Source: a bacterium (GTDB lineage: Bacteria; UBA8248). Taken from it: DNA of 64,000 nt. The notes below the pieces were generated by a model, which was given only the letters and a program-made list of their open reading frames with translations, was not told where the DNA came from and ran no database searches. Positions 34,610 through 64,000 of the stretch are shown here, piece after piece. A program made the translations under genes and the position numbers. Where the stretch lies: the NCBI GenBank assembly GCA_965261085.1, contig OZ253442.1:2016001-2080000 (forward strand), given 5' to 3'. The stretch's first letter is position 1. Each line of letters starts with the position of its first letter.

Positions 34610-34610
34610 G

Positions 34611-41864: not shown

Positions 41865-42009
41865 GGCGACCTTACCTCGGCCCGGGCGATCGGGCCGTCA
41901 ATGGCGAGAAAACCGCGAGGCGAAAGAATCCCGGGGAGAAGGAGATTTTCTCGGTTTCTCCTCCTCCCCGGGCGCTATTTCTCGCCGTGTTTTCCTGGCG
42001 TTGCGAGAA

Positions 42010-50007: not shown

Positions 50008-51111
50008 ATGCAGGCTGATCTGTTCCGCGTGGCGATGGATTCACCAGACGACATATCCGGCGTGGTCGCTCTCGTCGAGGAGGGTAAATGCAGGCCCGAG
50101 GAAATCGTCGGCATCATGGGCAAGACCGAAGGAAACGGCTGCGTGAACGATTTTTCCCGGGGGTTCAGCAATTTCGTCCTGCTCGATTATTTTTCAAGAG
50201 TGACGGGAAAGAAGCGTGAGGAGGTGGAAGAGCAGATCGCCCTCATCATGTCCGGGGGAACCGAGGGGGTCATGTGTCCACACTTTTCGGTGTTCTCCAG
50301 ATCGGAGAACGGCGGAGGCGACGGAAGCGCGAAGCGCCTCGCCATCGCCTCGGGCCACACGACGGATTTTCTTCCCGAGGAGATGGGCAGGATGGCGCAG
50401 ATACACGCGACGGCCGACCTCGTCCGGCGATTGATGGAAGAGGCGCAAATCGAAAGCGTAGAGGATCTGCATTTCGTTCAGGTGAAGTGCCCGCTCCTGA
50501 CCGGGGACCGCATGGCGGACGCCTTAGGGCGCGGGAAGACGCTCTGCACCGAGGACACTTATAAGTCCATGGGATACTCACGCGGCGCATCGGCGCTGGG
50601 CGTGGCCCTGGCGGCGGGCGAGGTGGAAGAGAATCAGTTGAGCGACGACGTGGTTTGTAAGGATTGGTCGCTGCAATCGGGTGTCGCCTCCACCTCCGCG
50701 GGAATCGAATTGATGTGCAACGAGGTGATGGTCATCGGCAACAGCGCGGCCTGGGGCGGAGAACTGGTCGTCGGCCACAGCGTCATGCAAGACGCCATCG
50801 ACCGGGACGCGGTTCGCGAAGCCATCGTGAACGCGGGGATTTCATTCGACTGGGCGCTCTCACCCGAGGAGCGCGGGCGAATCGTCAACGTCTTTGCGAA
50901 ATGCGAGGCCTCCCCCGACGGCCTGGTGCGGGGCCGCAGGCACACGATGCTCGATGATTCGGACATCAACAATACGCGCCACGCCCGCTCGGTCGTGAAC
51001 GCCGTGGTCTCCTCCGTCGTCGGCGACCCGATGATGTTCGTCTCGGGAGGCGCTGAGCACCAGGGTCCTCCCGGCGGCGGGCCCGTCGCGGCCGTCGTCC
51101 GGGCGGAGTAG
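50008..51111 (+). CDS. atzD: cyanuric acid hydrolase (AtzD/barbiturase ring-opening amidohydrolase family)
   Basis: GKTEGNGCVNDFSR, MSGGTEG, VQVKCPLL, SMGYSRGASALG, STSAG, RRHTMLDDSDI, SGGAEHQGPPGGGP (cyanurate-hydrolase-type C-terminus). Confidence 0.88.
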   Translation: MQADLFRVAMDSPDDISGVVALVEEGKCRPEEIVGIMGKTEGNGCVNDFSRGFSNFVLLDYFSRVTGKKREEVEEQIALIMSGGTEGVMCPHFSVFSRSENGGGDGSAKRLAIASGHTTDFLPEEMGRMAQIHATADLVRRLMEEAQIESVEDLHFVQVKCPLLTGDRMADALGRGKTLCTEDTYKSMGYSRGASALGVALAAGEVEENQLSDDVVCKDWSLQSGVASTSAGIELMCNEVMVIGNSAAWGGELVVGHSVMQDAIDRDAVREAIVNAGISFDWALSPEERGRIVNVFAKCEASPDGLVRGRRHTMLDDSDINNTRHARSVVNAVVSSVVGDPMMFVSGGAEHQGPPGGGPVAAVVRAE

Positions 51112-51209
51112 GCGTCCCTCGATACGGCGCAAAAGCGCGCCTACTCGGGATGAGGGATGTGTATATATTATAAGGATAAGGAGGGTGGACTCTCCGCCGG
51201 GCTTCCCTT

Positions 51210-51597
51210 GTAGGGACAGGTCGCGACCTGTCCATTGAATTCTTTGTCAACCGAAACGAAAAAAGGGCGGACACATAGGTCCTCCCCTACAATCCCATCG
51301 CGTTTTGCGTAGGGCAGCCCCTCCTTCATCAGTCGGAGTTGACTATGTCTCCGCCCAGGCCCCCTTGGTTATCCTTCGCAAATCAGGGTGTCGTGTAGGG
51401 GCGGACCTATGTGTCCGCCCTGCCCCCTGTGGTTGTCCATTGCAGAACGGGGCTTCGGACAGGTCGCGACCTGTCCCTACGGGCTGTCAAGGTTTTCCGT
51501 AGGGGCCGCATATATGCGGCCCTCATGGCACGAACCGGTCGGGTCGGTCGGGTCGCATGTATGCGTGGGGCGGTCCCGAATAGGAACCGCCACCTAC
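51210..51597. repeat. cluster of GTAG-type REP doublets
   Basis: Inverted pairs at 51210-51290, 51395-51480 and 51499-51597, each GTAGGG+hairpin ... hairpin+CCTAC. Confidence 0.8.
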
Positions 51598-51621
51598 AAA
51601 ACCATTCTCCCCGAGAGGATT

Positions 51622-52698
51622 CTATCCCGCCGATATGTTGCGCCGCGCCTGCACGAACACCACCGTCAGGACGATGATGGCCTGAAAGACGAACACCGCG
51701 GCCCCCGGCAGACCGATGCTGCGCTGCAGCGAATCAGAACCCGACACCAGCACGGCGAACACCGCGGCGGCTATCGTCACCCCCAGGGGGTTGTTGCGCC
51801 CGATGACTGCTATCAGAATGGCCATCGCCCCGTAGTTGGGCGCGCCCTCCGAGCCGCTTATCCCCAGAAGCAGGCTCTGGTGGAATCCCGAGACCTCGAT
51901 GGCTCCGGCCAGGCCCGAGAGCGCGCCGCAGGTCGGCATGATGATCAAGGTGATGCGCGCGACGTTGATGCCGCCGAAGCGCGCGGCCCGGGGGTTGTCC
52001 CCCACCGCGCGGATCTCATAGCCCACGATGGTGCGCGTCATCAAGAAATACATGCCCACGGCCGCCGCCAGCGCGATGATGAAACCGAAGTGCGCGCCCG
52101 ATTTCGGCATCACCTGGGGCAGCACGGAGGCGTCCGGAATCGGAAGCGAGATGGCATCTCCCGCCAGGGGGTCGTTCCAGGGGCCGTTGGCGAGGTAATC
52201 CACCAGATAGAGCGCGACGAAGTTCAGCATCACCGTCACGAATATCTCGCTCACCTGGTAGCGCACGCGCAGGATTCCGGGAATGAATCCCCAGAACCAC
52301 CCGCCCAGAATGCCGCCCAGAAGTCCCAGGGGGACGAAGACCGGCCAGGGCAGGTTCAAACCTTCTAAAGCAAAGGCCGTGCCCGTCATGCCGATGGCGC
52401 CCGCGTATATCTGCCCGTCCACGCCGATGTTGAAGTGCCCGCCCCGCATTCCGAAGGCGACCGCGAGCGAAGCCAGAAGCAGGGGGCAGAATTTGTTCAA
52501 GGTCTGCGCGAACCCGCCCCACGTGCCGAGCGAGGAGCGAAGAACGGTCCCCAACGCCACGAGCACGTCCCCGCCGAAGGCGACGATGAAGATTGCGCCG
52601 CACGCCAGGGCCAGTATAGCCGCCGACGAGTAGGTGATCGCGATTTCAATGGCCGCTTTTTTCTTCTCCGCCAAACTCGCCGCGCTCGAACTCGCCAT
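51622..52698 (-). CDS. ABC transporter permease (nucleoside/BMP-associated)
   Basis: FNIGVDGQ, SEIFVTVMLNF, GYEIRAVGDNPRAARFGGI. Confidence 0.9.
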   Translation of the reverse strand: MASSSAASLAEKKKAAIEIAITYSSAAILALACGAIFIVAFGGDVLVALGTVLRSSLGTWGGFAQTLNKFCPLLLASLAVAFGMRGGHFNIGVDGQIYAGAIGMTGTAFALEGLNLPWPVFVPLGLLGGILGGWFWGFIPGILRVRYQVSEIFVTVMLNFVALYLVDYLANGPWNDPLAGDAISLPIPDASVLPQVMPKSGAHFGFIIALAAAVGMYFLMTRTIVGYEIRAVGDNPRAARFGGINVARITLIIMPTCGALSGLAGAIEVSGFHQSLLLGISGSEGAPNYGAMAILIAVIGRNNPLGVTIAAAVFAVLVSGSDSLQRSIGLPGAAVFVFQAIIVLTVVFVQARRNISAG

Positions 52699-52699
52699 T

Positions 52700-54277
52700 T
52701 TAAGAGCCCGCCTCGAGTTTCTGGCCCGCCATGAGGGAGCCTATCTGGTAGATGTCGTACTCGGGGCCGTCAAAAGCGCCTGAAATCTCCCCCGCATAGA
52801 TCACGATGATCCGGTCGCTCATGAGGCGAAGTTCATCGAGGTCTTCTGAAATCAGCAGGACGCCTGCGCCTTGCGCGCGAAGCTCCTGTAAGCGGCCATG
52901 CACGAACGAGGCGGCCATGACGTCGAGACCGCGCGTGGGGTTGTTGGCGATCATCACCTTCCCGCCCGTCTTGTGGGCGAGCATCACCGAGCGCGCCACG
53001 ATGGTCTTCTGGATGTTTCCGCCCGATAGATGCGCGGCGGGCACGTGCTCGTTTCGCGCCAGAATGTTGAATTCCGCGATGGCGTTTCTACCCATTTCGT
53101 GGGCGGCCTCGCGATCGAATATCCCGCGCCGCTTGAAGATGTGCGGGTGCAGGCCGAGCACGAAATTCTCCGCAAGGCTCAAGCCCGGCAGAATCCCCTC
53201 CTCGATCCTGTCCTGGGGGATGAGGCTCATCCCCCGCGCGATGCGTTCGGACACCGAAAGGCCTGTGACCTCCTCACCGCCCAAGTGGACTTCGCCTTCT
53301 TGAATCTCGATGAGCCCGGCCAGGGCTTCCGCCAGTTCCTTCTGGCCGTTGCCGGAGATGCCCGCCAAACCGACGATGAGACCCCGGGGGACGTCGAAGG
53401 CGACGTCCTTGAGAGGCACCCCCCACTTCGAGGAGGTATGAACCTCCCGAACCGAGAGGGCGGGATGCCCCTCCCGGGCCGCCGAAGGCCCGGTTGGCCG
53501 CTCGCCCTCCGGAGGCAGGCCGCGCTCGCCCATCATCATCTGGACGAGTATTTCGCGGGTGGCGTCCACGCGGAGGATCGTGTCGATCTTCCGCCCGCCC
53601 CGGAAGACGGTAATCCGGTCGCAGTTGTCCAGAACTTCCTGGATTTTGTGCGTGATGAAGACGACCGTCAGGCCCTCCTTGGCGAAGGACTTGAGTATCG
53701 AGAACAGACCGTCCACCTCGTGGGGAGTCAGCATGGTCGTCGGCTCGTCCAGAATCAGGATGTCCGCGCCGTGATAAAGCGCCTTCAGGATTTCGACTTT
53801 CTGCTGAATCCCGGCGGGAAGGGTTTTCACCTGCTCATCAAGCGGTATGGAGAGGCCGTAGTTCGCGGCGAGTTCCTCCACGGAACTGCGCCGGGCGTCC
53901 ACGTCGAGCTTCCAGCGCGAACCTTCCCGCCCGAGCAGAATGTTTTCCAGCGCGGTGAAGTTGCCAATCAACTCCACGTGCTGGTGAACCATCCCGACGC
54001 CGGCCCTGATCGCATCCTGGGGAGAGCGGACCTCCACCTCGCGCCCGTCGATGGCGATTTGCCCATCGTCCATGCGGTAGAGGCCGCTCAGGATGTTCAT
54101 GAGCGTGGTCTTGCCCGCGCCGTTTTCTCCGAGGAGGGCGTGGATCTCCCCCTCCCCCGCCTCGAAATCGACCGCGTCCAGGGCGACGACCTCCCCGAAG
54201 GACTTGCTGACGCCGTACATTTCAACTCGGGGGACGATCTTTTCCGTCATCACTTTCATCCATTCCAAGCGCCCCAC
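52700..54277 (-). CDS. ABC transporter ATP-binding protein (two-domain sugar/nucleoside type)
   Basis: GENGAGKTT, LILDEPT, LSGGNIQK, NPTRGLD; start may lie slightly downstream. Confidence 0.92.
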   Translation of the reverse strand: MGRLEWMKVMTEKIVPRVEMYGVSKSFGEVVALDAVDFEAGEGEIHALLGENGAGKTTLMNILSGLYRMDDGQIAIDGREVEVRSPQDAIRAGVGMVHQHVELIGNFTALENILLGREGSRWKLDVDARRSSVEELAANYGLSIPLDEQVKTLPAGIQQKVEILKALYHGADILILDEPTTMLTPHEVDGLFSILKSFAKEGLTVVFITHKIQEVLDNCDRITVFRGGRKIDTILRVDATREILVQMMMGERGLPPEGERPTGPSAAREGHPALSVREVHTSSKWGVPLKDVAFDVPRGLIVGLAGISGNGQKELAEALAGLIEIQEGEVHLGGEEVTGLSVSERIARGMSLIPQDRIEEGILPGLSLAENFVLGLHPHIFKRRGIFDREAAHEMGRNAIAEFNILARNEHVPAAHLSGGNIQKTIVARSVMLAHKTGGKVMIANNPTRGLDVMAASFVHGRLQELRAQGAGVLLISEDLDELRLMSDRIIVIYAGEISGAFDGPEYDIYQIGSLMAGQKLEAGS

Positions 54278-54308
54278 CCCCCGATCGGGGACGGGGCGCT
54301 TATACCTT

Positions 54309-55310
54309 CTATTTCGCCAACATGACTTTTTTCATTTCCAGCCGGGGCTTAATGGCTCCGGAGCGTACTTTCGCATAGGCCTCTTTGGTTCTCTTGATGG
54401 CCTCGGCCGATACGTTGCCCAGAGAGCTGATCTCGAAACCGACTCCGGGGCGCATGGGCACGTATCCCCCCATGGCTCCTTTCATGATTCCTTGCATGGC
54501 TTTCTGGTAGGGAGGCCGGAAATCGATGATCAGCGTGCCGGCGAAATGCTTGGGCGCCTTGTCCGTCTTGTCGGTGTAAAACGTGGTGACCAGAACCTTG
54601 CTCTTCGCCTTTTTGGCGGCCTCCACGACCCCGTATACCCCCAGGTTCACCATGTTGATGATGAAGTCGACGCCGTTCGCGATCATGGCGTCGGCGGTCT
54701 GGCGCGCCTTGACCGGGTCGTTCTGGTTCCCGGTGAAGGCGTAGACGAGCTTCGCCTTGGGGTTGGTCGCTTTCAGGGCGTCCGAGATGGTGTTGATGGA
54801 AGCCTTGAAGTCAGGCAACTGGATGCCCGCGATGACGCCCACCTTGTTCGTCTTCGTGGCGAGACCGGCCAGCACCCCGAAGGGATAGAAGGCCTCGAAA
54901 TAGTGGCGGTGAATGTTCCAGACGTTCTTGGGCACCTTGAACTTTCCCGAACTCTCCATGATAAAAGTGGTGCCGGGGAATTTCGGGGCCAGCTTCTGCA
55001 CGAGCCGGACGTATTGCCCGCCGTGGAAGCCGATGATGGTGAAGCCCGAGGATATGTACTCGCGCGCCACCCTCTCGGCGTCCGCCGGAGAGATTCGCTC
55101 GGAGTAGGAGGTTTCGATCTTGAACCTCTTCTTGATGTCCTGGGCAACCTCATAGCCCCGGAAGTTGTAGTCCGCATCCTCGATGGGTCCGGGGACGATG
55201 ATGGCGAACTTGTGGGCCTTCGCGGCGAGCGCCTGACCGGGGGCTACGGCGAGGGAGAGGGCCGCGAGCGCGGCGGCGAAGAACAATCGGCGTGTCCATT
55301 TGGTTTTCAT
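54309..55310 (-). CDS. BMP family (PnrA/TmpC-like) substrate-binding protein
   Basis: Signal peptide from MKTKWTRR; PGPIEDADYN, GVLAGLATKTNKVGVIAG, DPVKARQ. Confidence 0.88.
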   Translation of the reverse strand: MKTKWTRRLFFAAALAALSLAVAPGQALAAKAHKFAIIVPGPIEDADYNFRGYEVAQDIKKRFKIETSYSERISPADAERVAREYISSGFTIIGFHGGQYVRLVQKLAPKFPGTTFIMESSGKFKVPKNVWNIHRHYFEAFYPFGVLAGLATKTNKVGVIAGIQLPDFKASINTISDALKATNPKAKLVYAFTGNQNDPVKARQTADAMIANGVDFIINMVNLGVYGVVEAAKKAKSKVLVTTFYTDKTDKAPKHFAGTLIIDFRPPYQKAMQGIMKGAMGGYVPMRPGVGFEISSLGNVSAEAIKRTKEAYAKVRSGAIKPRLEMKKVMLAK

Positions 55311-55356
55311 TTCACACTCCTCCTTGATGAGAAAGCAAAAAATCCCGGGCGCGGGT

Positions 55357-56298
55357 TCAATCCCGGGTTTCACGATCGTAAGGCCTCGTAAGCGCGCGGG
55401 GGCTCTCGGCGCCCCGCGCCACCTGAACCAGCACAATCATGGCGAACACGTACGGCAGCATCAGCAAAAACTGCGGCGGAATGATTTTGGCGAACTGCGG
55501 CAGAGCGCTCACCTTGAACTGAAAAGCGTCCACGTAGGCGAACAGCAGCGCGCCGACGAACGACCAGAGAGGAACCCACCGGCCGAATATCACCAGCATC
55601 AGGGCGAGCCACCCTCTTCCGTTCACGATGTTGTCCGTGAACGAGCCCGAGATCACGAGCGGCAGGTATGCGCCCGCGACGCCCAGGAAAAGTCCGCCCA
55701 CCGCACAGGCGCCATAGCGCATGCGGGCGACGTCTATCCCCACCGTGTCCGCCGCGCGGGGGTTTTCCCCGCAGGCGCGCAGCCTCAGACCCAGCGGCGT
55801 CTTGAAGAGGAAAAAGCTCACCGCCGCGACGAGGAAATAGGACAAATAGACGAGTCCGTTCTGCGCGAAGAAAATCTCGCCGACGAAGGGGATGCTCCCC
55901 AGAAGCGGGATGTGTATCTCTCTCAAGGTCGGCACCTGGGGAATGGACTGCACGACGCCTACCGCCAGGCGGTAGATGGTGGGCGAGATTCCCAGCCCCA
56001 GGACGAATATCCCCAGCCCGATGACGATCTGGTTCGCGCGCAGGGTGATGGAGAAATACGCCAGAAGCAGAGTCAGCACACTTCCCGAGAGCGCCGCGAC
56101 CAAGCAGCCGATAATCGCGCTGCCCGAGTAGTAGGTGAGCAGAAAACCCGTCACCGCTCCGAGCGTCACGATGCCCTCGATGCCGACGTTCAGAATCCCC
56201 GAGCGCTCGATGATGGTCTCGCCGAGACACGCGATGATGAGCGGCGCCATCATGAGCATAGTGAGCTGGAAAAGGGATATGTCGAAAAAAAGGGACAA
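55357..56298 (-). CDS. ABC transporter permease (nucleoside/BMP-associated)
   Basis: ERSGILNVGIEG, LRACGENPRAADTVG, GRGWLAL, LPYV. Confidence 0.9.
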   Translation of the reverse strand: MSLFFDISLFQLTMLMMAPLIIACLGETIIERSGILNVGIEGIVTLGAVTGFLLTYYSGSAIIGCLVAALSGSVLTLLLAYFSITLRANQIVIGLGIFVLGLGISPTIYRLAVGVVQSIPQVPTLREIHIPLLGSIPFVGEIFFAQNGLVYLSYFLVAAVSFFLFKTPLGLRLRACGENPRAADTVGIDVARMRYGACAVGGLFLGVAGAYLPLVISGSFTDNIVNGRGWLALMLVIFGRWVPLWSFVGALLFAYVDAFQFKVSALPQFAKIIPPQFLLMLPYVFAMIVLVQVARGAESPRALTRPYDRETRD

Positions 56299-56659
56299 GA
56301 AGGCGCACTCCTCGTAGTGGTGTGAAAATGCGAAAACTCGTCTCCGTGCGCCGCTGCTCGGGAGACGGAGTGTATTTATCCTTGTGGCTTTGGCAGTCAG
56401 TATGCCTTACGTGTTCCCCAAATTCAAAAGATACAGGTTTTATGTTTCCGTCATGTAACGCGGATTCCCCCGCGATTCGCTCCGAGATTGAAAATCCCGC
56501 CCGGCGCGCCGTCCGCCGCATGGCGTTCGCGATGAAAGCGGATGCGTTGCCCGCCGCGTCCGGTTCATACATAATACGCGCATTGCACATACTTCCCATA
56601 TGAACCGACTGCCAAGATGGAGATCGTTTCTTTTCTTCGTCCAAAAGGAGACCTCCGAG

Positions 56660-57379
56660 ATGGAATTGATCGATTTGAGCATGGAAATATACCGGGACAT
56701 GCCGATATACCCCGACCTGCCCGGCCCCTCCCTCACCGTCGATGAGGACTGGGACACCGTGGCCCGGCGGACCGGGGCCATCAACTACGGCGCCGACATC
56801 GTGACAAACCACTGCGTCATCTTCATGAGCGACCACACGGGGACGCACATCGACTCCCCCTGGCACAACAACCCGGACGGTTTCACGACCGAGCGCATCC
56901 CGATCGAGTGGTGCATGTCTGACGGCGTGGTTCTCGATTTCACCGACAAGGAGTCGGGCTACGCGATCACGGCGGCGGACGTGGAAGGCGCGCTCCAGAA
57001 GATCGACTACTCGCTCAAGCCGCTCGACATCGTGCTCATCCGCACCGACGCGAGCGTGGACTGGCAGACGAACCCCGACTACACGATGAACCAGCCCGGC
57101 ATGAGCGCCGAGGCGACCCACTACCTCATCGACAACGGCATCCGCGTGATGGGGATCGACGGGAGCGGGTGGGACGTGCCGATCTGGAAGATGCACGAAA
57201 CGCGCAGCTACTGGGAGGCCCACCGGGTCATGCTGGAGAAGGACTACTGCCACATCGAGAACATGGTGAACCTGAACCTCATTCCAAAGTCCCACGGGTT
57301 CAAGCTCTCGGTGCTGCCCATCAAGTTCCGCGGCATGTCGGGTTCTCCCATTCGCGCGGTGGCGATCATCGAAGATTAG
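56660..57379 (+). CDS. cyclase family amidohydrolase (kynurenine formamidase/isatin hydrolase fold)
   Basis: HTGTHIDSPWH (HxGTHxDxPxH), MGID, IEN, GSPIRAVA; ATG 56660 after AGGAG. Confidence 0.9.
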   Translation: MELIDLSMEIYRDMPIYPDLPGPSLTVDEDWDTVARRTGAINYGADIVTNHCVIFMSDHTGTHIDSPWHNNPDGFTTERIPIEWCMSDGVVLDFTDKESGYAITAADVEGALQKIDYSLKPLDIVLIRTDASVDWQTNPDYTMNQPGMSAEATHYLIDNGIRVMGIDGSGWDVPIWKMHETRSYWEAHRVMLEKDYCHIENMVNLNLIPKSHGFKLSVLPIKFRGMSGSPIRAVAIIED

Positions 57380-57398
57380 ACTCTGGGGAGCGAATGAA

Positions 57399-58967
57399 AT
57401 GGCGGTAGCCGTTCGCGTCCTCACCGGCGCGTACCACGATTCGGTGAAGCTCATGCGCATCAGCGCCGCCGCCTGCGAGAGGCCGGGCGTTCGGGGGGCG
57501 GTGGTCCTCATGGGCACGCCGATGAATCTGGAGCAACTCGCATCGATCGGACTGCTCTCAGAGGAGGCGCAACGCGCGGGTCCGAACGACCTCGTTCTCG
57601 CCGTGGAGGCGGAGGGCGCGGAGGCGGCGCAAGAAGAACTCGCCGTCATGGAAGCGGCGCTGAGCGCGCCCCGCGTAGCCACAGGAGCGGGATTGTTCGC
57701 AAAACTCTCCGCACCGACGCTTGACGCGGCGCTCGGGAAAGACCCTCTCATCAATCTGGCCCTCTTCTCGATTCCCGGTCCAAGCGTGCGGCGCGAGGCG
57801 GAGCGCGCGCTTAGTAAAGGCCTCCACTGCCTCATCTTCAGTGACAACGTGCCCGTCGAAGACGAGGTGGCGCTCAAGCGCATAGGCCGCGAGAAGGGTT
57901 TGCTGGTGATGGGTCCTGACTGCGGAACGGCGCACATCGGAGGCGTCGGCCTCGGGTTTTGCAACGTCATGCGGCCTGGGAAAATCGGGATCGCGGGCGC
58001 GGCGGGAACGGGGATTCAGGAGGCGATGGCCGCCATCGACGCTGCAAGAGGCGGAATATCGTGCGCCCTCGGCACCGGAGGACGTGACGTCTCGGACGCG
58101 GTCGGCGGCCTCGCCATGGTTCAGGCTATTGAAACTCTTAGCGAAGATACGGCGACGGAGGTTCTCCTCGTTCTCGGAAAACCGCCCGAGGCGGCGGCGA
58201 TGAAAAAAGTGCTCGAAGCGGCTGGGCGGTGTACGAAGCCCGTGGCCATACACTTCGTCGGGGCCCAAGCCGAGGATATACGCCGACACTCCGGTGAGCA
58301 TCCCCATCTCTACCCTGCCGATTCGCTGGCCGGGGCAGGGAAGCTCGCCGTTTCACTCCCGGGAGGGCCGGCCCCTGCAATGACGCCGGAAATCAATCCC
58401 GAAACACGGGAGAAAATCGCCGAATGGCGCCGCGCGCGCACGAAAGGTCAGCGATTCCTGCGCGGCGTCTATACGGGGGGAACGCTGTGCGCCGAGGCGC
58501 AGGCGATCATCGGAAAAACCGTGGCGGGGATTCGCTCCAACGCGCCCATAGGTAAAGCCGGCGGCAAGATGGCCGACCCCATGAAATCACAAGGCCATGC
58601 GGTCGTGGACATGGGCGATGACCTCTTCACGCGGGGAAAACCCCATCCCATGATCGAGCCTGAGCCGAGAAGCGCCCGTATACTCCAGGAAGCGCAAGAC
58701 CCCGAAACGGCGGTGGTGCTCTTCGACGTGGTGCTGGGGCTGGGTGCGCATGAAGATCCGGCGGGAGAAGCGGCGAAGGCTGTAGAGAAAGCGCGCGCCT
58801 CTCATCCCGGTGTTTTGTTCATCGGCTCGGTAACGGGCACCGAGGGCGACCCGCAGGGTTTGAATGCCCAGCGCGCCAGATTGAAAGAGGCCGGCGCCCT
58901 CGTGGCGGATACGCACTTAGAGGCGTGCCTCGCCGCCGCCGCCGCACTCGAGGGTTTGAACGAATGA
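57399..58967 (+). CDS. fdrA: FdrA (AllF)-like succinyl-CoA-synthetase-fold protein
   Basis: YHDSVKLM, MGTPMN, FSDNV, MGPDCGT, GTGGRD, GGTLCAEA, DMGDD.FTRGKPHPMI. Confidence 0.9.
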   Translation: MAVAVRVLTGAYHDSVKLMRISAAACERPGVRGAVVLMGTPMNLEQLASIGLLSEEAQRAGPNDLVLAVEAEGAEAAQEELAVMEAALSAPRVATGAGLFAKLSAPTLDAALGKDPLINLALFSIPGPSVRREAERALSKGLHCLIFSDNVPVEDEVALKRIGREKGLLVMGPDCGTAHIGGVGLGFCNVMRPGKIGIAGAAGTGIQEAMAAIDAARGGISCALGTGGRDVSDAVGGLAMVQAIETLSEDTATEVLLVLGKPPEAAAMKKVLEAAGRCTKPVAIHFVGAQAEDIRRHSGEHPHLYPADSLAGAGKLAVSLPGGPAPAMTPEINPETREKIAEWRRARTKGQRFLRGVYTGGTLCAEAQAIIGKTVAGIRSNAPIGKAGGKMADPMKSQGHAVVDMGDDLFTRGKPHPMIEPEPRSARILQEAQDPETAVVLFDVVLGLGAHEDPAGEAAKAVEKARASHPGVLFIGSVTGTEGDPQGLNAQRARLKEAGALVADTHLEACLAAAAALEGLNE

Positions 58968-60382
58968 GCGGAAAAAAATTACTGGAGGGCGTCCGCGTCG
59001 CGAACGTCGGCGTGGAGTTGTTCGCGGAGAGCTTGGCCGCACAAAACGCCCCCGTGGTGCAGGTGGACTGGCGTCCCCCCGCCGGAGGAGATACCGAAAT
59101 GATCGAGCATCTCGACCGATTAGCGGTTTGCGATGCGGCCAACGACGTCGCCATCGAGCGTCTTCAGGCCGCAAGGCCCGTATGGGTGGACTTAAGCGTG
59201 GCCATCGACGAGATACCCGGCATGGGCGAGAGAACCCTCCTACACTCGGGCCCGCCCATCACCTGGGAGCACATGTCGGGGCCTCTTAAGGGCGCGATGA
59301 TAGGGGCCGCCCTGCTGGAAGGCTGGGCGAACGATGCGGAAGCGGCGGAAAGACTCTGCGCGAGCGGAGAAATCACTTTCGAGCCCTGTCACCACCATTC
59401 CACGGTGGGGCCTATGGCGGGCGTGGTATCGCCCTCGATGCCCGTGAGCATCATCGAAAACCGCGCGCCCGCTGAACTCGGAGGCGGCGGGAGGACCTAT
59501 TGCACCTTAAACGAAGGCTTGGGCAAGGTGCTGCGCTACGGCGCCTATTCCGAGGACGTGCTGGCGCGCCTTAAGTGGATGGCGGACGAACTCGCTCCCG
59601 CCCTTGGCTCGGCGGTGCAAGCGATGCCGGATGGCCTCGACATCAAGAACGTCATCGCGCGCGCCCTGCACATGGGCGATGAGGCGCACAACCGGAACCA
59701 CGCGGCGACGGGGACGGTGGCCCGCGCCCTCATGCCCTATCTCGCGGATTCGGTGAACGATACGAAGGTCATTTCCCGCGTGGCGGAATTTTTCGCGGGA
59801 AACGATCACTTCTTCCTGAATCTGGCGATGCCCGCCGCCAAGGCGAGCCTGGACACCATGGCGGGAATTGAAGGCTGCTCCCTGGTCTACACCATGGCGC
59901 GCAACGGGACGGATTTCGGCATCCGGGTCGGCGGTCTGGGAGATGCGTGGTTCACCGCACCGGCGAAGCATCCGGTGGGGCTCTTCTTCCCGGGCTATTC
60001 CCAGGAAGACGCAAATCCCGACATCGGCGATTCGGCCATCATGGAGACGCTGGGCGTCGGGGGATTCGCCATGGCCGCGGCGCCCGCCATCGTCGCCTTC
60101 GTGGGCGGCTCGACGGCGGAGGCCTTTCAGGCGACGAACGAGATGTACGGGATCACCTGGGCGCGGAGCCGGGACTACACCCTCCCCGTATTCGATTTCG
60201 CAGGGGTTCCGACCGGCATCGACGTCCGCAAGGTGATCGAGACGGGCATCTACCCCAACATCAACACCGGAATCGCCCACAAGGACGCAGGCGTCGGGCA
60301 GATAGGCGCAGGCGTTCTCCGCGCGCCCGAAGAGCCGTTTCAAAAGGCCTTCGAAGCCCTCGCCGGGAAGATGGGCGGGTAG
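58964..60382 (+). CDS. DUF1116 / YlbE (AllG)-like protein
   Basis: N-terminal VDWRPPAGGD module; LLHSGPP, PCHHHSTVGPMAG, MGDEAHNRN, FFLNLAM, MARNG, DIGDSAI, INTGIAH, GQIGAG; ATGA overlap with fdrA. Confidence 0.9.
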   Translation: MSGKKLLEGVRVANVGVELFAESLAAQNAPVVQVDWRPPAGGDTEMIEHLDRLAVCDAANDVAIERLQAARPVWVDLSVAIDEIPGMGERTLLHSGPPITWEHMSGPLKGAMIGAALLEGWANDAEAAERLCASGEITFEPCHHHSTVGPMAGVVSPSMPVSIIENRAPAELGGGGRTYCTLNEGLGKVLRYGAYSEDVLARLKWMADELAPALGSAVQAMPDGLDIKNVIARALHMGDEAHNRNHAATGTVARALMPYLADSVNDTKVISRVAEFFAGNDHFFLNLAMPAAKASLDTMAGIEGCSLVYTMARNGTDFGIRVGGLGDAWFTAPAKHPVGLFFPGYSQEDANPDIGDSAIMETLGVGGFAMAAAPAIVAFVGGSTAEAFQATNEMYGITWARSRDYTLPVFDFAGVPTGIDVRKVIETGIYPNINTGIAHKDAGVGQIGAGVLRAPEEPFQKAFEALAGKMGG

Positions 60383-60460
60383 CGGGAAAGTCCTTACCTG
60401 ACCAAGGAAAATCACTCTCACCTTGAAGATCAACACCAATTGAAGAATGAGAATTTACGG

Positions 60461-60490
60461 GTGATGCGGGAGGTCAAACCCTCCCGCATT
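60461..60490. terminator. hairpin between convergent genes
   Basis: atgcgggagg-tcaaac-cctcccgcat; weak T-tract. Confidence 0.45.
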
Positions 60491-60549
60491 GGTCGGGCCA
60501 AACGCTCGCCCCGCGCTCTCGTTAAACATTCCCTCTTCGGTCGGGTTTA

Positions 60550-60828
60550 CTACCTGGTTCGCTCGATGAGTTCGCGCAGGGACGCCATGGACTCCTCGTG
60601 CCTGCGCCCGGACTCTTCATCCCTGCGCCGGGATTCGGCCATGAACTCGTCGTGTCTGCACTCGGAATCGGTCATCGTCTCCGCGTGTTTGCGCTCGGAG
60701 TCGGTCGCTCGCATTTCGGCGCCCTTCGCCATGGTGCGGATGCCGTAGTAGATCAGCGCGAGACCGCCGTAAGAGGCAAGGAGGTTCATGAGAGCAATGG
60801 TGAGGTTGAAGTGTTCATACGTCGTCAT
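60550..60828 (-). CDS. small membrane-anchored protein with 11-aa charged repeats
   Basis: Hydrophobic N-terminal helix, then SERKHAETMTD / SECRHDEFMAE / SRRRDEE / SGRRHEESMAS; GGAG RBS. Confidence 0.6.
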   Translation of the reverse strand: MTTYEHFNLTIALMNLLASYGGLALIYYGIRTMAKGAEMRATDSERKHAETMTDSECRHDEFMAESRRRDEESGRRHEESMASLRELIERTR

Positions 60829-61079: not shown

Positions 61080-61405
61080 TTAATGAATTCACCATAAAGA
61101 ACCTGATTCAAGATAGCCTTCCTGCAAGACACCAGGAGGCACTTGTAGATGGATTTCCTCTCTCGCTCACGAAGGCCATCCTCTCTAAATCCGTCCGTGA
61201 GGTCTGCGGGCGACAAGCCATCTTCCACATCAACTCCATCGGCTCACCGGCCTTCGAGTCGCGTGAGGCAGGGAAAATGACAGCCAGACATATAAGTCCG
61301 CCACCAGGTTCCCGGACGGGAACATTTCTTCTTCTCACCAAGGGCCGCAACCCCCCGAAGTTTCCGGAGTCGGCGGCACGGACCCTTTATCATGGAGGAA
61401 ATACG

Positions 61406-62623
61406 ATGAGCGCACGCATGAAACGAGGGCTTTGCATATTTATCGGGCTGGCGTTCGCCCTGGGCGTCGTTCTCTCCGCCGCGCCCGCCCAGGCGGCGAA
61501 GAAGCCGGTCGTCATCGGAGTGGCCATCGCACTCACCGGCAAAGTTTCCAAATCCGGGAAACTCACCCTTCGCGGGTACGAGATGTGGCAGCGCGAGGTC
61601 AACGCGCGGGGCGGACTGCTCGGCCGCAAGGTCGTGCTCAAGGTCTATGACGATGAGAGCAACCCCACCACCGGGGCGAAGCTCATCGAACGCCTCATCA
61701 ACCGCGATAAGGCGGAAATCATTTTTGGCCCCTTCAGCAGTCCGGTCACCTACGCGACGAGCACCGTCACCGAAAAATACAAATTCCCCATGATCGCGGG
61801 CGGCTCCAGCAGTTCCAAGCCGTTCTCCCGGGGCTACAAGTATCTCTTCCAGGTGATGCGGGTGAACAACGACGCCCTGCTCGGCAATCTCTCCCTCTTG
61901 AAGGAAAAGGGCGCGAAGACCATCGCCATCATCCACTCGGCCAGCATCTACCCCTCTTCTCTCGCCAGAGGGGTCCGGAAACTGGGCGAGAAGCTCGGCT
62001 TCAAGGTGGTCTCGGTGGACAAATACCCCCCAAAGACCACGGACTACACCTCGCTCCTCTTAAAGGCGAAGGCCCTGAACCCCGACGTCCTCTGCCTGTT
62101 CGGCTACTACCCCGACGGGCTGGCCATCTCCAAGCAGGCCAAGGAGATGGACGTCAACCCCCGCCACCTGAACGTCATGCTGGGAGCTTCGTATGACGAG
62201 TACGGCTCCAAGAAGGGCGTGGGGCTGGATTCGAATTACGTGAGCGGCTACACGGGCTGGGAGCCTTTCATGAAAACGCCGGGCAACAAGGCGTTCGTCA
62301 AGAGGTATTTCGATGAGTACAAGGACGACCGCTTCATGGACGCGCACGTCACCTACGGCTACATCGTCGGCCAGGTGATGGAAAAGGCGGTGAAAAAGGT
62401 CGGCTCGTTCGACAGGGATAAAATCCGCGACGCGATCGCCGCGATGAAGTTCGACAGCATGATGCCGGGGCAGTTCCGGGTCGATCCCGAGACCGGCATG
62501 CAGGTCGGACACCAGTGGGCGGCCTTCCAGTGGCAAAACGGAAAAAAGGTCATCGTATGGCCGAAGAGCGCCGCCACGGGCAAGTTCATCTACCCCACAC
62601 CCAAGTGGAGAGGAAGAAACTAG
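61406..62623 (+). CDS. branched-chain amino acid (Liv-type) ABC substrate-binding protein
   Basis: Signal peptide; NARGGLLGRKV, YDDESNP, GPFSS, QWQNG...VWP; GGAGG RBS before ATG 61406. Confidence 0.9.
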   Translation: MSARMKRGLCIFIGLAFALGVVLSAAPAQAAKKPVVIGVAIALTGKVSKSGKLTLRGYEMWQREVNARGGLLGRKVVLKVYDDESNPTTGAKLIERLINRDKAEIIFGPFSSPVTYATSTVTEKYKFPMIAGGSSSSKPFSRGYKYLFQVMRVNNDALLGNLSLLKEKGAKTIAIIHSASIYPSSLARGVRKLGEKLGFKVVSVDKYPPKTTDYTSLLLKAKALNPDVLCLFGYYPDGLAISKQAKEMDVNPRHLNVMLGASYDEYGSKKGVGLDSNYVSGYTGWEPFMKTPGNKAFVKRYFDEYKDDRFMDAHVTYGYIVGQVMEKAVKKVGSFDRDKIRDAIAAMKFDSMMPGQFRVDPETGMQVGHQWAAFQWQNGKKVIVWPKSAATGKFIYPTPKWRGRN

Positions 62624-62725
62624 CCGCTCCCCGGAGGGTGTGAACAAGTGTGATTTGATCGTCGTCGGCCCGCCTACCGCTCCCGGGCGGGGGGCGGGCG
62701 CCGACGCACGAGGAGAACGTGCGCC

Positions 62726-63604
62726 GTGAGCCTGGAAATAATGCCGCTCATGTTCACGCAGGCCGTCATCAGCGGCATGTTGATGGGCGCGGTCTACGCC
62801 CTCCTCGCCCTCGGCCTCACGATGGTCTTCGGCGTCATGCGCGTCATCAACATCTCACACGGCGAGATGCTCATGCTGGGAGCCTACGTGAGCTTCTGGC
62901 TCTTTCACCAGTTCGGCCTGAGTCCCCTGCTGGCCATACTGGTCGCCGCCCCGCTCATGTTCGCCGTCGGGGCGCTCATCGAAAAGGGGATCATCGAAAA
63001 AGTCGTCGAGGACATCGAGACGAACTCCCTCCTCGTCACCTTCGGGGTCTCCATCTGCATCGTGAACATAACCATCTGGCTGTGGACCACCGACTTCAAG
63101 GCCATCCCCTACCTCTCGGGCTCTTGGTTCTACGGCTCGCTGGTGTTTCCAAAACCCCGCTTGGTGGGCGCGGCCTTCGCCCTCGCGCTGACGGCGCTCG
63201 TCTACTTTTTTCTCAAATTCTCCCGCCTCGGCAAGGCCATCCGCGCCACGGCCGGCAGCCACGATCTGGCGGCCACCTGCGGCATTCACGTCAAGCGCAT
63301 CTACTTCGTCACCTTCGGCCTGGCGAGCGCGATGGGCGGAGCCGCGGGCGTGCTGGCGAGCATCATGTTCGCCATCTACCCCGAGATGGGCGAATCGTTC
63401 CTCATGCGCTCGTTCACCGTCATCGTGCTCGGGGGGATGGGCCACGTCATGGGGGCGGTGCTCGGCGGGATGGTTTTGGGGCTGGCGGAGGGCATCGGCA
63501 GCCTCTATCTCAGCGGAGAGGGCGGGGGAGCCATCTCGTTCGCCATTTTACTGCTCATCCTCATCTTTCGCCCTTCCGGCCTCCTGGGCCGGCGGGAGGA
63601 ATGA
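62726..63604 (+). CDS. LivH-type ABC permease
   Basis: YALLALGLTMVFGVMRVINISHGE, GKAIRA, VLGGMG, RPSGLLG. Confidence 0.92.
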   Translation: MSLEIMPLMFTQAVISGMLMGAVYALLALGLTMVFGVMRVINISHGEMLMLGAYVSFWLFHQFGLSPLLAILVAAPLMFAVGALIEKGIIEKVVEDIETNSLLVTFGVSICIVNITIWLWTTDFKAIPYLSGSWFYGSLVFPKPRLVGAAFALALTALVYFFLKFSRLGKAIRATAGSHDLAATCGIHVKRIYFVTFGLASAMGGAAGVLASIMFAIYPEMGESFLMRSFTVIVLGGMGHVMGAVLGGMVLGLAEGIGSLYLSGEGGGAISFAILLLILIFRPSGLLGRREE

Positions 63605-63611
63605 AGCGCAA

Positions 63612-64000
63612 GTGAAAAAATACGCCCTCATCATTCTCGTGCTGGCCGCGCTTTGTCTCTACCCCTACTTCATGGGGCCTTATTTCATATCCATGGCGCT
63701 TTTGATCTTCATGTACATCAGCCTCGCCGGAAGCTGGAACATCATCTCGGGCTTCGTGGGCTACGTCTCACTCGGCCACGCGGTGTTCTTCGGGGTCGGG
63801 GCGTATCTGGCGGCGCTCCAGATAACGAACTTCGGAACCCACTGGCTGCCGGCCTCCCTGCTCGCCGGCGTGGGGACGTCCCTGCTGGCGGTGCCCGTGG
63901 GGGCGCTCTGCCTGCGCCTCAGGGGGCCTTTTTTCGCCATCTTCATGCTCGGGCTGAACGAGCTGATGGCCATCGTCGCCTCGGTGTACGACAACATCAC
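63612..64000 (+). CDS. LivM-type ABC permease, N-terminal part (runs off window end)
   Basis: Not in the ORF track. Hand translation from GTG 63612 gives ...SWNIISGFVGYVSLGHAVFFGVGAY...LRLRGPFFAI. Confidence 0.85.
   Translation, partial: MKKYALIILVLAALCLYPYFMGPYFISMALLIFMYISLAGSWNIISGFVGYVSLGHAVFFGVGAYLAALQITNFGTHWLPASLLAGVGTSLLAVPVGALCLRLRGPFFAIFMLGLNELMAIVASVYDNI

Follow-up and report, generated by a model that had tools for sequence, protein, structure and literature searches.

A candidate lineage-specific catabolic island for nitrogen-rich cyclic ureides in a bacterium of UBA8248

What does a bacterium do with a cyanuric acid hydrolase, an ABC importer and a cyclase-FdrA-AllG operon encoded side by side? 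In the window, by which we mean the whole 64,000-nucleotide stretch that was analysed, positions 50008-60382 hold atzD, a minus-strand four-gene ABC importer of the BMP type and, divergent from it, a cyclase-FdrA-AllG (DUF1116) operon. All eight genes of this block lie where the original prediction had put them, and Pfam and NCBIfam profile matches agree with the identities that it gave them (Table 1). Because the arrangement recurs in related species, chance juxtaposition is ruled out. The reading that we favour, and to which we give about an even chance, is a lineage-specific set of catabolic genes that would take nitrogen-rich cyclic ureides to carbamoyl phosphate and substrate-level ATP, with AtzD best read as a frequent but dispensable feeder. 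The cluster extends past the window end, where a LIV/Urt-type binding protein and two permeases are followed by a carbamate kinase; no ATPase genes were found after these permeases. As had been predicted, a Pfam scan of the called, GC3-filtered ORFs detected no amidase-signature or isochorismatase genes in the window.

The starts of atzD, the cyclase gene and allG were refined by reading N-termini and by homologue lengths. The atzD ORF opens at TTG 50002, with a GGGGG ribosome-binding stretch before the refined ATG at 50008, and the cyclase ORF opens at 56600, with its refined ATG at 56660; the allG ATG at 58964 overlaps the fdrA stop as ATGA, its homologues being 464-480 aa long. For the BMP protein, whose ORF opens at 55436 (54309-55436), the N-terminus points to ATG 55310 as the likely start, followed by the signal peptide MKTKWTRRLFFAAALAALSLAVAPGQALA.

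Table 1. Features of the locus, in window coordinates unless stated otherwise.
Feature	Position	Strand	Evidence
atzD/trzD-type cyanuric acid hydrolase	50008..51111	+	PF09663 497.6 bits; NF052395 526.8 bits, cut-off 360
ABC permease 2 (BPD_transp_2)	51622..52698	-	PF02653 126 bits
ABC ATPase, two nucleotide-binding domains	52700..54277	-	PF00005, two stretches, 155 bits
BMP/PnrA-family periplasmic binding protein	54309..55310	-	PF02608 112 bits
ABC permease 1 (BPD_transp_2), first gene of transporter operon	55357..56298	-	PF02653 107.5 bits
Divergent intergenic region, transporter/cyclase operon	56299..56659	.	one promoter-like site 56547-56575 (+)
Cyclase-family metal-dependent amidohydrolase, 239 aa	56660..57379	+	PF04199 129 bits
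fdrA/allF-like subunit (CoA_binding + Ligase_CoA)	57399..58967	+	NF004760 441.1 bits, cut-off 433
allG/DUF1116 subunit, 472 aa	58964..60382	+	PF06545 309 bits
Small ORF, 102 aa, no family	60440..60748	+	no Pfam match at E<=10
LIV/Urt-type binding protein	61277-62623	+	PF13458 229.6 bits; UrtA model 101 bits, cut-off 493
Two LIV-type permeases	62726-63604; 63612 onward, off window end	+	within 61277..64000
Carbamate kinase	genome C1:2080695-2081702 = window-equivalent 64695-65702	-	NF009007 325.3 bits, cut-off 266

The favoured pathway would begin with uptake and ring opening. The BMP-type system, whose genes run in the order permease 1, binding protein, tandem ATPase and permease 2, may import one or more planar ring compounds, which the original prediction would derive from damaged purines; permease 2 has copies in 19 related loci at 78-99% identity, and the tandem ATPase scores under every NCBIfam equivalog cut-off. 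In the divergent intergenic region, consensus promoter matches were no more numerous than in shuffles and no riboswitch was detected, the Rfam search at E<=1 giving only a chance snoRNA-like match elsewhere. AtzD would then convert cyanuric acid to 1-carboxybiuret. Its assignment draws on the NCBIfam cyanuric acid amidohydrolase equivalog (NF052395) and on its closest structures, with 490.8 bits to 5T13 and 457.5 to 6BUM, both cyanuric acid amidohydrolases, against 278 to the barbiturase 5HWE. Aligned with 4NQ3, it keeps three of three Ser-Lys dyads and three Arg, that is, all nine catalytic residues listed for solved cyanuric acid hydrolases (PMC4051656).

The third step would fall to FdrA and AllG, which we propose to form, with a single unlinked AllH recruited in trans, a catabolic transcarbamoylase of the AllFGH type that uses phosphate to split off the N-carbamoyl end group of a linear ureide. 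In E. coli, the oxamic transcarbamylase AllFGH is reported to turn oxalurate and phosphate into oxamate and carbamoyl phosphate, with the catabolic carbamate kinase AllK as its partner (PMC11326118). Counterparts of three products of this allFGHK cluster (fdrA-ylbE-ylbF-ybcF) are encoded here, 39% identical to AllF, 51% to AllG and 41% to the carbamate kinase, and they likely follow the same logic, from ureide and phosphate through carbamoyl phosphate to ATP. The most economical substrate would be 1-carboxybiuret, yielding carbamoyl phosphate and allophanate, with allophanate or oxalurate as alternatives. Carboxybiuret reportedly undergoes spontaneous decarboxylation (half-life about 20 min; PMC7948467), an instability that counts against the 1-carboxybiuret route. 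The layout differs from that of E. coli in several respects: the N-terminal ~50 residues of AllG match the C-terminal tail of E. coli FdrA, allB, allC, allD and allE are not beside the cluster, whose neighbours are instead atzD, the BMP importer and the cyclase-family hydrolase, and AllH lies outside the operon. The AllH (DUF2877) gene, which the original prediction had left to a genome search, is encoded as a single copy 1.18 Mb away and is thus unlinked to the block. Across the phylum AllH tracks AllG, both being present in 39 of 51 genomes and neither in eight, with AllG alone in three and AllH alone in one.

A different activity for this enzyme pair, of the YahF/YahG type and, for example, ADP-forming and ligase-like on an acyl or carbamoyl compound, with a non-ureide substrate, is in our view unlikely. 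It would suit the succinyl-CoA-synthetase-alpha-like domains of FdrA, the position of AllH outside the operon and the near equidistance of both subunits from E. coli AllF/AllG and the uncharacterised YahF/YahG (38% identity of FdrA to YahF against 39% to E. coli FdrA; 45% of AllG to YahG against 51% to YlbE). The split into a short FdrA and a long AllG is also that of YahF (515 aa) and YahG (472 aa) in the uncharacterised E. coli cluster yahE-yahF-yahG-yahI-yahJ (NC_000913). That cluster, however, contains yahI, which is carbamate-kinase-like, as well as a DUF2877 gene, and the paralogous yah system is therefore probably also concerned with carbamoyl phosphate; YahI is, moreover, the closer E. 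coli match to the carbamate kinase found here (46% identity). The yah cluster differs from our block in keeping the DUF2877 gene (yahE) and an amidohydrolase (yahJ) and in having no atzD, cyclase or BMP importer. Also against a non-transcarbamoylase activity stand the allophanate hydrolase and AtzD that adjoin the module and the carbamate kinase linkage, which persists through three different arrangements.

A carbamate kinase linked to the cluster, as a genome search revealed, fits the carbamoyl-phosphate-yielding route of the original prediction and would carry out the fourth step, from carbamoyl phosphate and ADP to ATP, NH3 and CO2. It scores below the TIGR00746 cut-off (335.4 bits vs 358). 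In this genome it lies 4.3 kb past allG on the opposite strand, with an IS element adjoining; this loose placement counts against the favoured reading. Elsewhere the gene is found immediately upstream of atzD and codirectional with it (nine loci, in nine species), beside the transporter without atzD (one locus), after LIV genes as here (one further locus) and directly after allG (L036, which corresponds to genome G046, and the metagenome locus L044).

The original prediction had this route replacing the usual biuret/allophanate hydrolases, and that claim is supported in part. None of 51 genomes of the phylum has a BiuH that reaches the model cut-off, and this genome encodes no AtzE above the cut-off, no urease and no urea carboxylase; urease is absent from E. 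coli as well, according to PMC11326118. Elsewhere this genome nevertheless encodes an allophanate hydrolase homologue that passes the curated cut-off. In two other genera the enzyme follows allG directly (G041) or follows allG and the carbamate kinase (L044 and L036; TIGR02713 583 bits, cut-off 511). On account of both observations, the route looks like a hybrid rather than a full replacement of the biuret/allophanate pathway, and in its fifth step allophanate hydrolase would complete the breakdown.

The cyclase, whose stop lies 19 bases before fdrA, would supply or rescue substrate in a sixth step, possibly by taking over from the absent biuret hydrolase or by opening a second ring such as parabanate. 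Its HxGTHxDxPxH motif is invariant in our alignment (A1), and its PDB matches are weak (best 8HMO, 59.6 bits; kynurenine formamidases and isatin hydrolases, 31-39 bits). A plain kynurenine formamidase was rejected, in line with the original prediction, the arylformamidase model TIGR03035 giving 60.5 bits against a cut-off of 223. Beyond these relatives the cyclase keeps no constant company, a point against the favoured reading: among its homologues of other phyla (46-55% identity), FdrA, AllG, AtzD or carbamate kinase adjoined 0 of 77 metagenome loci by tblastn, and none of the four was found by Pfam in the 119 flanking ORFs of the 30 longest of these loci. In several relatives the gene immediately upstream of the cyclase encodes a fused HyuA/B-type enzyme similar to caprolactamase, oxoprolinase and acetophenone carboxylase (six genome loci and two metagenome loci), a hint that the original substrate of the module was a different cyclic amide.

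The synteny survey covered 25 related species loci, all from one taxonomic family and thus kin rather than independent cases, with loci that had contig room for a test as denominators. The cyclase gene is followed by fdrA at 24/24 loci, fdrA by allG at 22/22, and the divergent ABC operon is present at 20/20. AtzD stands beside permease 2 at 12 of 16 testable loci, which bears out the expected linkage to the cluster, and atzD and allG share a contig within 15 kb in 14 genomes of the phylum. The stronger notion of AtzD and cyclase-FdrA-AllG as one block holds only in part, as the two are separable in both directions. The module occurs without atzD at the other four testable loci (L023, L031, L034, L040) and in seven genomes (G015, G022, G024, G028, G040, G041, G046). 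AtzD, which 38 of the 51 surveyed genomes of the phylum encode, occurs without the module in the sister family (G001, G002, G004), with cupin, RidA and MFS genes as its neighbours; in G004, whose assembly is a single contig, 760 kb separate it from the closest allG.

This separability favours two independent routes side by side, a possibility that we take seriously but hold to be rather unlikely. The importer, cyclase, FdrA-AllG and carbamate kinase would then serve an oxalyl- or hydantoin-type ureide, the cyclase opening parabanate to oxalurate, for example, or the relatives' HyuA/B opening hydantoin, ahead of an E. coli-like oxalurate transcarbamoylase. AtzD would work apart, through the distant allophanate hydrolase and a putative biuret hydrolase, and the proximity of the genes would stem only from common control of nitrogen scavenging or from common uptake. 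The HyuA/B gene that relatives carry upstream of the cyclase agrees with this, as do oxalurate as the only demonstrated AllFGH substrate (PMC11326118) and the membership in the cyclase family of isatin hydrolase, an enzyme cleaving a cyclic alpha-keto amide (a weak likeness, 37.9 bits to 5NNB). Against separate routes stand the carbamate kinase directly upstream of atzD, the lack of BiuH or AtzE at hand for the AtzD product, and the finding after allG, in two genera, of allophanate hydrolase, not an oxamate-degrading enzyme. In addition, the window holds no allantoin-to-oxalurate genes, and elsewhere in the genome AllC and AllD have only paralogues of 31-33% identity.

Inherited gene order, without functional coupling of atzD, the importer and the cyclase operon, appears very improbable. 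The evidence does come from one family of related genomes, and the locus is often surrounded by IS elements and rearrangements. The core has nonetheless been retained through insertions, HyuA/B loss, carbamate kinase relocation and the gain and loss of LIV genes, and in genome G012 a 64%-identical BMP binding protein still adjoins atzD, divergently, with the rest of the cluster absent. The 102-aa ORF after allG is weakly conserved in some relatives (six of the 25 loci, at 56-80% by tblastn), and its part in the system is uncertain.

The closest published parallel to the proposed island is the set of biuH/trtA/atzF, bmpA-nupABC and allFGHK clusters described in comammox Nitrospira and ammonia-oxidising archaea (PMC12625717). 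These likewise unite in one locus a BMP-type ABC importer, an AllFG-type enzyme accompanied by carbamate kinase, and enzymes of the cyanurate/triuret/biuret branch, and some archaeal contigs are described as having no collocated atzF (PMC12625717). They differ in carrying BiuH and TrtA, in place of which atzD and the cyclase-family enzyme stand here, and in keeping allH; their authors report the nitrifier genomes to be without atzD and read allFGHK as a separate oxalurate pathway (PMC12625717). With the canonical cyanuric acid pathways, described as atzD-biuH-atzF in Rhizobium and Herbaspirillum and atzDGEHF in Pseudomonas sp. ADP (PMC7948467; also PMC5806882, PMC6219798), the locus shares AtzD as first step and, given the allophanate hydrolase homologue, probably the last. 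It departs from them in its middle step, with neither BiuH nor AtzE above cut-off, and in its neighbours, a transcarbamoylase-type enzyme and carbamate kinase. If the favoured reading is true, the use of cyanuric rings and ureides via carbamoyl phosphate to ATP would be an undescribed way of using nitrogen-rich rings.

The eight genes that the original prediction placed in this block, namely atzD, the four genes of a BMP-type ABC importer and the divergent cyclase, fdrA and allG (DUF1116), were all confirmed by profile and sequence matches, and the cluster was found to continue beyond the window. Genes in the window, whose GC content is about 61%, were called from ORF length and third-position GC, and start codons were refined by reading N-termini and by comparing homologue lengths; the resulting coordinates are listed in the table. 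The importer is a BMP/PnrA-type set with two BPD_transp_2 permeases, and its nearest NCBIfam equivalog is a putative B6 transporter, at 66.5 bits against a cut-off of 400. The block contains no regulator gene, and an RNA-family search of its intergenic regions found neither a riboswitch nor another RNA element. A promoter and terminator scan of the block gave no more matches than shuffled sequences did and is hence uninformative, and a domain search downstream of allG found no hidden AllH (DUF2877) or other domain at E<=10.

Coordinates of the genes of the block, of the downstream region and of related features. Positions are those of the window unless a contig (C1, the contig that carries the window) or a locus number (L) is given.
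Feature	Coordinates	Strand	Remark
atzD	50002/50008-51111	+	ATG start at 50008 from start-codon reading
permease 2	51622-52698	-	last in importer order
tandem ATPase	52700-54277	-	two-domain importer ATPase
BMP binding protein	54309-55310/55436	-	signal peptide present
permease 1	55357-56298	-	first in importer order
cyclase	56600/56660-57379	+	239 aa counted from 56660
fdrA	57399-58967	+	divergent operon with cyclase and allG
allG/DUF1116	58925/58964-60382	+	472 aa; ATG overlaps the fdrA stop
LIV/Urt-type binding protein and two permeases	61277-64000; L009:1277-4538		no ATPase genes after the permeases
carbamate kinase	C1:2080695-2081702	-	4.3 kb downstream of allG
low-GC3 ORFs and IS transposase	L009:5700-13751		past carbamate kinase
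AtzF (allophanate hydrolase) homologue	L017:14602-15981		amidase domain only, 459 aa
fused HyuA/HyuB gene of related loci	L039:5982-9959; L044:297-4241; also L035, L036, L037, L040, L041, L045		about 1320 aa

Downstream of allG, the gene order is a small unassigned ORF, the LIV/Urt-type binding protein, its two permeases, carbamate kinase, low-GC3 ORFs and an IS transposase. Nine of the 25 related loci share this ATPase-less LIV/Urt-type set. The low-GC3 ORFs have no family match, and the transposase carries DDE_Tnp_1 and DUF772 domains; among relatives, IS elements interrupt the locus in one case (L031) and border it in two (L035, L039). Elsewhere in the window, PrpF, aconitase-family and citrate-synthase-family proteins are encoded in a row (33461-37722, minus strand) in an apparent 2-methylcitrate-cycle set, a myo-inositol-1-phosphate-synthase domain and a SAM methyltransferase domain are fused in one protein of 660 aa (7486-9468), and an 822-aa DctM-type TRAP membrane protein adjoins an NMT1_3 (TAXI-type) binding protein (39396-43002).

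Every sequence criterion identifies AtzD as a homologue of cyanuric acid hydrolases. It scores 526.8 bits against NF052395 (cut-off 360) and 520 bits against TIGR02714 (cut-off 153), and it matches the cyanuric acid hydrolases 5T13, 6BUM and 4BVQ at 490.8, 457.5 and 398.3 bits, compared with 278.2 bits for the barbiturase 5HWE. For the Azorhizobium enzyme, the dyads Ser79/Lys40, Ser226/Lys156 and Ser333/Lys285 and the substrate-binding residues Arg52, Arg188 and Arg314 are reported in PMC4051656. All nine of these residues, together with Glu230, are identical in an alignment of AtzD with 4NQ3, including the arginine at position 188, which is Gln in barbiturases. The genome also encodes a second AtzD paralogue outside the window, at about 3.06 Mb (locus L010, C1:3055001-3075000; NF052395 402 bits, cut-off 360), in the neighbourhood of a TRZ/ATZ-family amidohydrolase, a cupin, a RidA protein, a flavin amine oxidase and a distant cyclase paralogue. 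The trio of this paralogue, amidohydrolase and cupin recurs in another genome of the phylum (G039, locus L132) with a creatininase nearby, and it may constitute a pathway of its own that handles triazines or other aminated rings. We rejected this second pairing of atzD and cyclase as independent support for the block, since its cyclase is only 30% identical and the genome holds at least ten cyclase paralogues. A small cupin adjoins atzD in the sister family (L126 in G004, L127 in G002, L130 in G001) and at both loci of the second paralogue (L010:8319-8756, L132:12090-12494), often with RidA also present, and it might act on the unstable product of AtzD.

The cyclase matches PF04199 at 129 bits and carries HTGTHIDSPWH, an instance of the motif HxGTHxDxPxH, which we take to be the metal-binding motif of the cyclase superfamily; its His and Asp residues are invariant among 22 aligned homologues. 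The possibility that this enzyme is a plain kynurenine formamidase, which would have spoken against the original prediction, was not borne out, with TIGR03035 at 60.5 bits against a cut-off of 223 and solved kynurenine formamidases at 34-39 bits. Sequence matches to the isatin hydrolases 5NNB, 5NNA, 4J0N and 5NMP are also weak (26.8-37.9 bits), and the best match among solved structures, the unnamed metal-dependent hydrolase 8HMO, is itself weak at 59.6 bits. In other phyla the neighbours of cyclase homologues include SDR proteins, PQQ dehydrogenase, aldehyde:ferredoxin oxidoreductase (AFOR), molybdenum hydroxylase, UPF0261 proteins, a PEP-utilising enzyme and a GntR regulator; these contexts are heterogeneous and were therefore rejected as a guide to substrate. 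The cyclase subfamily alone points to no substrate.

Aligned homologues of the cyclase, used to scan metagenomes, returned 80 loci. Three of them, with cyclases at 85-91% identity, carry genes of the cyclase-FdrA-AllG module; in the remaining 77 (cyclase 46-55%), many of which lie on short contigs, tblastn detected no FdrA, AllG, AtzD or carbamate kinase, and none of the four turned up when Pfam was run on 119 flanking ORFs of the 30 longest metagenome loci. The pairing of this cyclase with FdrA and AllG is thus an invention of this lineage. Ring-opening families are strongly expanded in the genome as a whole, with at least 10 cyclase-family, at least 12 hydantoinase/oxoprolinase-type and 17 amidase-signature matches.

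FdrA narrowly passes the FdrA subfamily model NF004760 (441.1 bits, cut-off 433), AllG matches PF06545 at 309 bits, and the two subunits are encoded together. The E. coli system offers the closest biochemical precedent: AllFGH converts oxalurate and phosphate into carbamoyl phosphate and oxamate, AllK makes ATP, and allF, allG and allH are all reported to be required for the oxamic transcarbamylase (PMC11326118). The island mirrors allFGHK in combining FdrA (the AllF counterpart) and AllG with a linked carbamate kinase, but it differs in that AllH is not in the operon and allantoin genes are not nearby. Compared with E. coli K-12, FdrA is 39% identical to FdrA/AllF and 38% to YahF, AllG is 51% identical to YlbE/AllG and 45% to YahG, and the carbamate kinase is 46% identical to YahI and 41% to YbcF/AllK. 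The first ~50 residues of AllG match the C-terminal tail of E. coli FdrA, so that the boundary between the two proteins is the one found in YahF/YahG. Identities of 38-39% for FdrA and 45-51% for AllG do not assign the pair to the All or the Yah branch and, together with the YahF/YahG-like split, do not discriminate between orthology to the characterised oxamic transcarbamylase and to the uncharacterised Yah paralogue. The carbamate kinase, on the strand opposite to allG, scores 325.3 bits against NF009007 (cut-off 266) and lies below the arcC equivalog cut-off (335 versus 358 bits). We consider it improbable that FdrA/AllG has a function other than that of a transcarbamoylase.

The original prediction had named carbamate kinase and ylbF (DUF2877, AllH) as genes to be sought; the kinase proved to be present and linked, and the AllH gene to be present as a single copy but unlinked, 1.18 Mb from the window. 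AllH (PF11392) was found neither in the window nor in 28 related loci, and wherever positions can be compared it shows no linkage to allG of the window type; in G039 it adjoins an allG. Across the phylum, AllH occurs in 40 of 51 genomes (single-copy in 39; in G041 another contig carries a fragment as well) and AllG in 42. The two genes track each other: 39 genomes have both, three only AllG, one only AllH and eight neither. Outside the lineage, AllG has its closest homologues at 57-60% identity, and the few of these that are named come mostly from Bacillota, e.g. Moorellaceae and Desulfitobacteriaceae. Further copies are found in other contexts. A second AllG in this genome adjoins a cytosine-deaminase-like amidohydrolase, and a second FdrA (472 bits; L018:8339-16240, C1 at about 2.78 Mb) has no DUF1116 gene beside it and is accompanied by an amidase, a UbiX prenyltransferase, a HIBADH-like dehydrogenase, a fumarate-reductase-type flavoprotein and a UPF0261-family protein, a family shared with the neighbourhoods of cyclase homologues in other phyla. 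In the sister family, one locus (L128, G004:C1:2021701-2041700) has an MFS transporter, AllG, a carbamate kinase (arcC 380 bits, cut-off 358) and a fumarylacetoacetate-hydrolase-family protein in a row, with FdrA not adjacent.

To follow the block among relatives, we scanned a genome collection with the cyclase, which yielded 25 species loci (cyclase identity 80-97%), and mapped the window proteins onto them by tblastn, counting only where the contig permits the test. The cyclase is followed by FdrA in 24/24 loci (FdrA being in pieces in L035), FdrA is followed by AllG in 22/22, and the divergent ABC operon is present in 20/20, with the binding-protein gene missing in L040 and L042. Carbamate kinase occurs in 12 of the 25 loci, and a thirteenth has a fragment of it. 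In nine loci the gene immediately precedes atzD on the same strand; in L023, where atzD is absent, it adjoins permease 2; in L019, as in this genome, it follows the LIV genes on the opposite strand; and in L036 it comes right after allG. Cyclase, FdrA, AllG and the importer form a conserved unit, near which carbamate kinase has been held through several rearrangements. Many of these loci and the phylum genomes represent the same genomes, and as the surveyed genomes are kin, the counts describe one lineage and not independent events. A neighbourhood devoid of functional meaning is, in our estimate, a very improbable account.

The link to atzD is looser. Loss of this link in relatives would have weakened the original prediction, and it was not observed as a rule, since atzD lies beside permease 2 in 12 of 16 testable loci; it is absent from that position in L023, L031, L034 and L040. 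AtzD was found in 38 of 51 phylum genomes and in 0 of 14 control genomes, and in 14 genomes a single contig carries both atzD and allG, no more than 15 kb apart, with the two on separate short contigs in many others. The atzD genes of the sister family have cupin, RidA and MFS genes on their flanks and no linkage to allG, the distance between the two being 760 kb in the single-contig genome G004. In another genome, G012, a BMP binding protein 64% identical to that of the window stands divergent beside atzD and an ammonium transporter, the other genes of the cluster being missing there. Six genome and two metagenome loci carry, immediately ahead of the cyclase and on the same strand, the fused HyuA/HyuB gene, which resembles caprolactamase, oxoprolinase and acetophenone carboxylase; its best NCBIfam matches, to caprolactamase and acetophenone-carboxylase subunits, are all far under the cut-offs. 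The locus of this genome has no such gene, and the genome holds only paralogues at 36-45% identity.

These observations bear on the main rival explanation, in which the module degrades a ureide of its own, by the parabanate-to-oxalurate route of the original prediction or by a hydantoin route, and atzD only shares uptake or regulation with it. The module and atzD each occur without the other, the cyclase seems to have had an ATP-dependent enzyme of the lactam or hydantoin type as its ancestral neighbour, and oxalurate is the only proven substrate of the FdrA/AllG enzyme class. Allantoin genes, a source of oxalurate, are absent from the window, and AllC and AllD are represented elsewhere in the genome only by paralogues at 31-33% identity. 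We regard the separate-ureide explanation as rather unlikely.

The genome, a single contig of 4.27 Mb, was also searched for the enzymes of the usual route. Biuret hydrolase (BiuH) is absent above the cut-off, the best match (122.8 bits against 370) fitting RutB better; no BiuH exceeds the cut-off in any of the 51 phylum genomes, and the best BiuH-like proteins of the sister family, at 253-279 bits, also lie under it. Carboxybiuret hydrolase (AtzE) was likewise not found above its cut-off (best 256 bits against 461) in a scan that took in four amidases, at 3.39 Mb and 2.78 Mb, and left out the other amidase-signature genes found. The proposal that the allophanate hydrolase step had been replaced did not hold, as an AtzF homologue above the cut-offs (TIGR02713 597.9 bits, cut-off 511; NF006043 642 bits, cut-off 487) is encoded 1.3 Mb from the window. 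The interpretation thus stands in part, for the linked genes and the missing biuret and carboxybiuret enzymes, and falls for allophanate hydrolase. Above its cut-off, this enzyme occurs in 25 of 51 genomes, all within the family of the window, and in none of the sister family. It also enters the island itself: in L036 (contig C5 of G046) and the metagenome locus L044, HyuAB, cyclase, FdrA, AllG, carbamate kinase, a gene fragment and an allophanate hydrolase (TIGR02713 583 bits, cut-off 511) follow one another, and in G041 allophanate hydrolase comes directly after allG. Urease and urea carboxylase are both absent from this genome and were rejected as a urea sink, and their absence argues against biuret-to-urea phosphorolysis as the main route.

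Four observations point to an integrated island for ureides of the cyanurate/biuret/allophanate family: carbamate kinase immediately preceding atzD in nine species; allophanate hydrolase directly following allG in two genera; the absence of BiuH, AtzE, urease and urea carboxylase; and the BMP binding protein that stays beside atzD in G012. We judge the chances of such an island to be evenly balanced. In the most economical scheme, in which every substrate is inferred, AtzD would open cyanuric acid to 1-carboxybiuret, and FdrA/AllG, with AllH acting in trans, would convert 1-carboxybiuret and phosphate into carbamoyl phosphate and allophanate. Carbamate kinase would then form ATP from carbamoyl phosphate, and allophanate hydrolase would release ammonia and CO2 from allophanate. 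Carboxybiuret is reported to decarboxylate spontaneously with a half-life of ~20 min (PMC7948467), and the cyclase could handle the biuret so formed. This specific version, in which the breakdown of cyanuric acid is not purely hydrolytic but includes phosphorolysis of 1-carboxybiuret (N-carbamoyl-allophanate) through AllFG(H) and the cyclase is a non-homologous biuret hydrolase, is speculative and, in our estimate, unlikely.

The nearest published parallel to the island is provided by the clusters of biuH/trtA/atzF, bmpA-nupABC and allFGHK reported for comammox Nitrospira and ammonia-oxidising archaea; that account treats allFGHK as an adjacent oxalurate pathway and reports no atzD in those nitrifier genomes (PMC12625717). 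General support for the formation of cyanuric acid, triuret, parabanic or oxaluric acid from oxidised guanine or urate is given in PMC12623156 and PMC7948467, and this origin is background and not evidence on the present locus. In the literature, judged mostly by titles and abstracts, we found no description of atzD beside fdrA, allG or carbamate kinase, nor of a cyclase-fdrA-allG operon.

Cyanuric acid hydrolase is unusually common in this lineage, and the enzymes known for the next step were not found above cut-off; its companions are instead a transcarbamoylase-type enzyme, carbamate kinase and, in relatives, allophanate hydrolase. The enzyme function of FdrA/DUF1116/DUF2877 was reportedly assigned no earlier than 2024, with oxalurate in E. 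coli as the sole case, and thousands of FdrA/DUF1116-class homologues, as well as the E. coli yah paralogues, are without an assigned substrate. To our knowledge, cyanuric acid has so far been treated only as a nitrogen source; if the proposal is true, ATP would be gained from this ring compound. Phosphorolysis of carboxybiuret would constitute an energy-conserving cyanurate pathway with no need for BiuH or urease, provide the first FdrA/DUF1116 substrate besides oxalurate and suggest a function for the widespread yahEFG-type clusters. The locus also supplies candidates for the missing biuret/carboxybiuret enzyme and for a BMP protein that binds cyanurate. Should the coupling turn out to be false, the conserved module of cyclase, FdrA, AllG and carbamate kinase still stands. 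The island offers a testable, potentially new biochemical step within a system of known kind.
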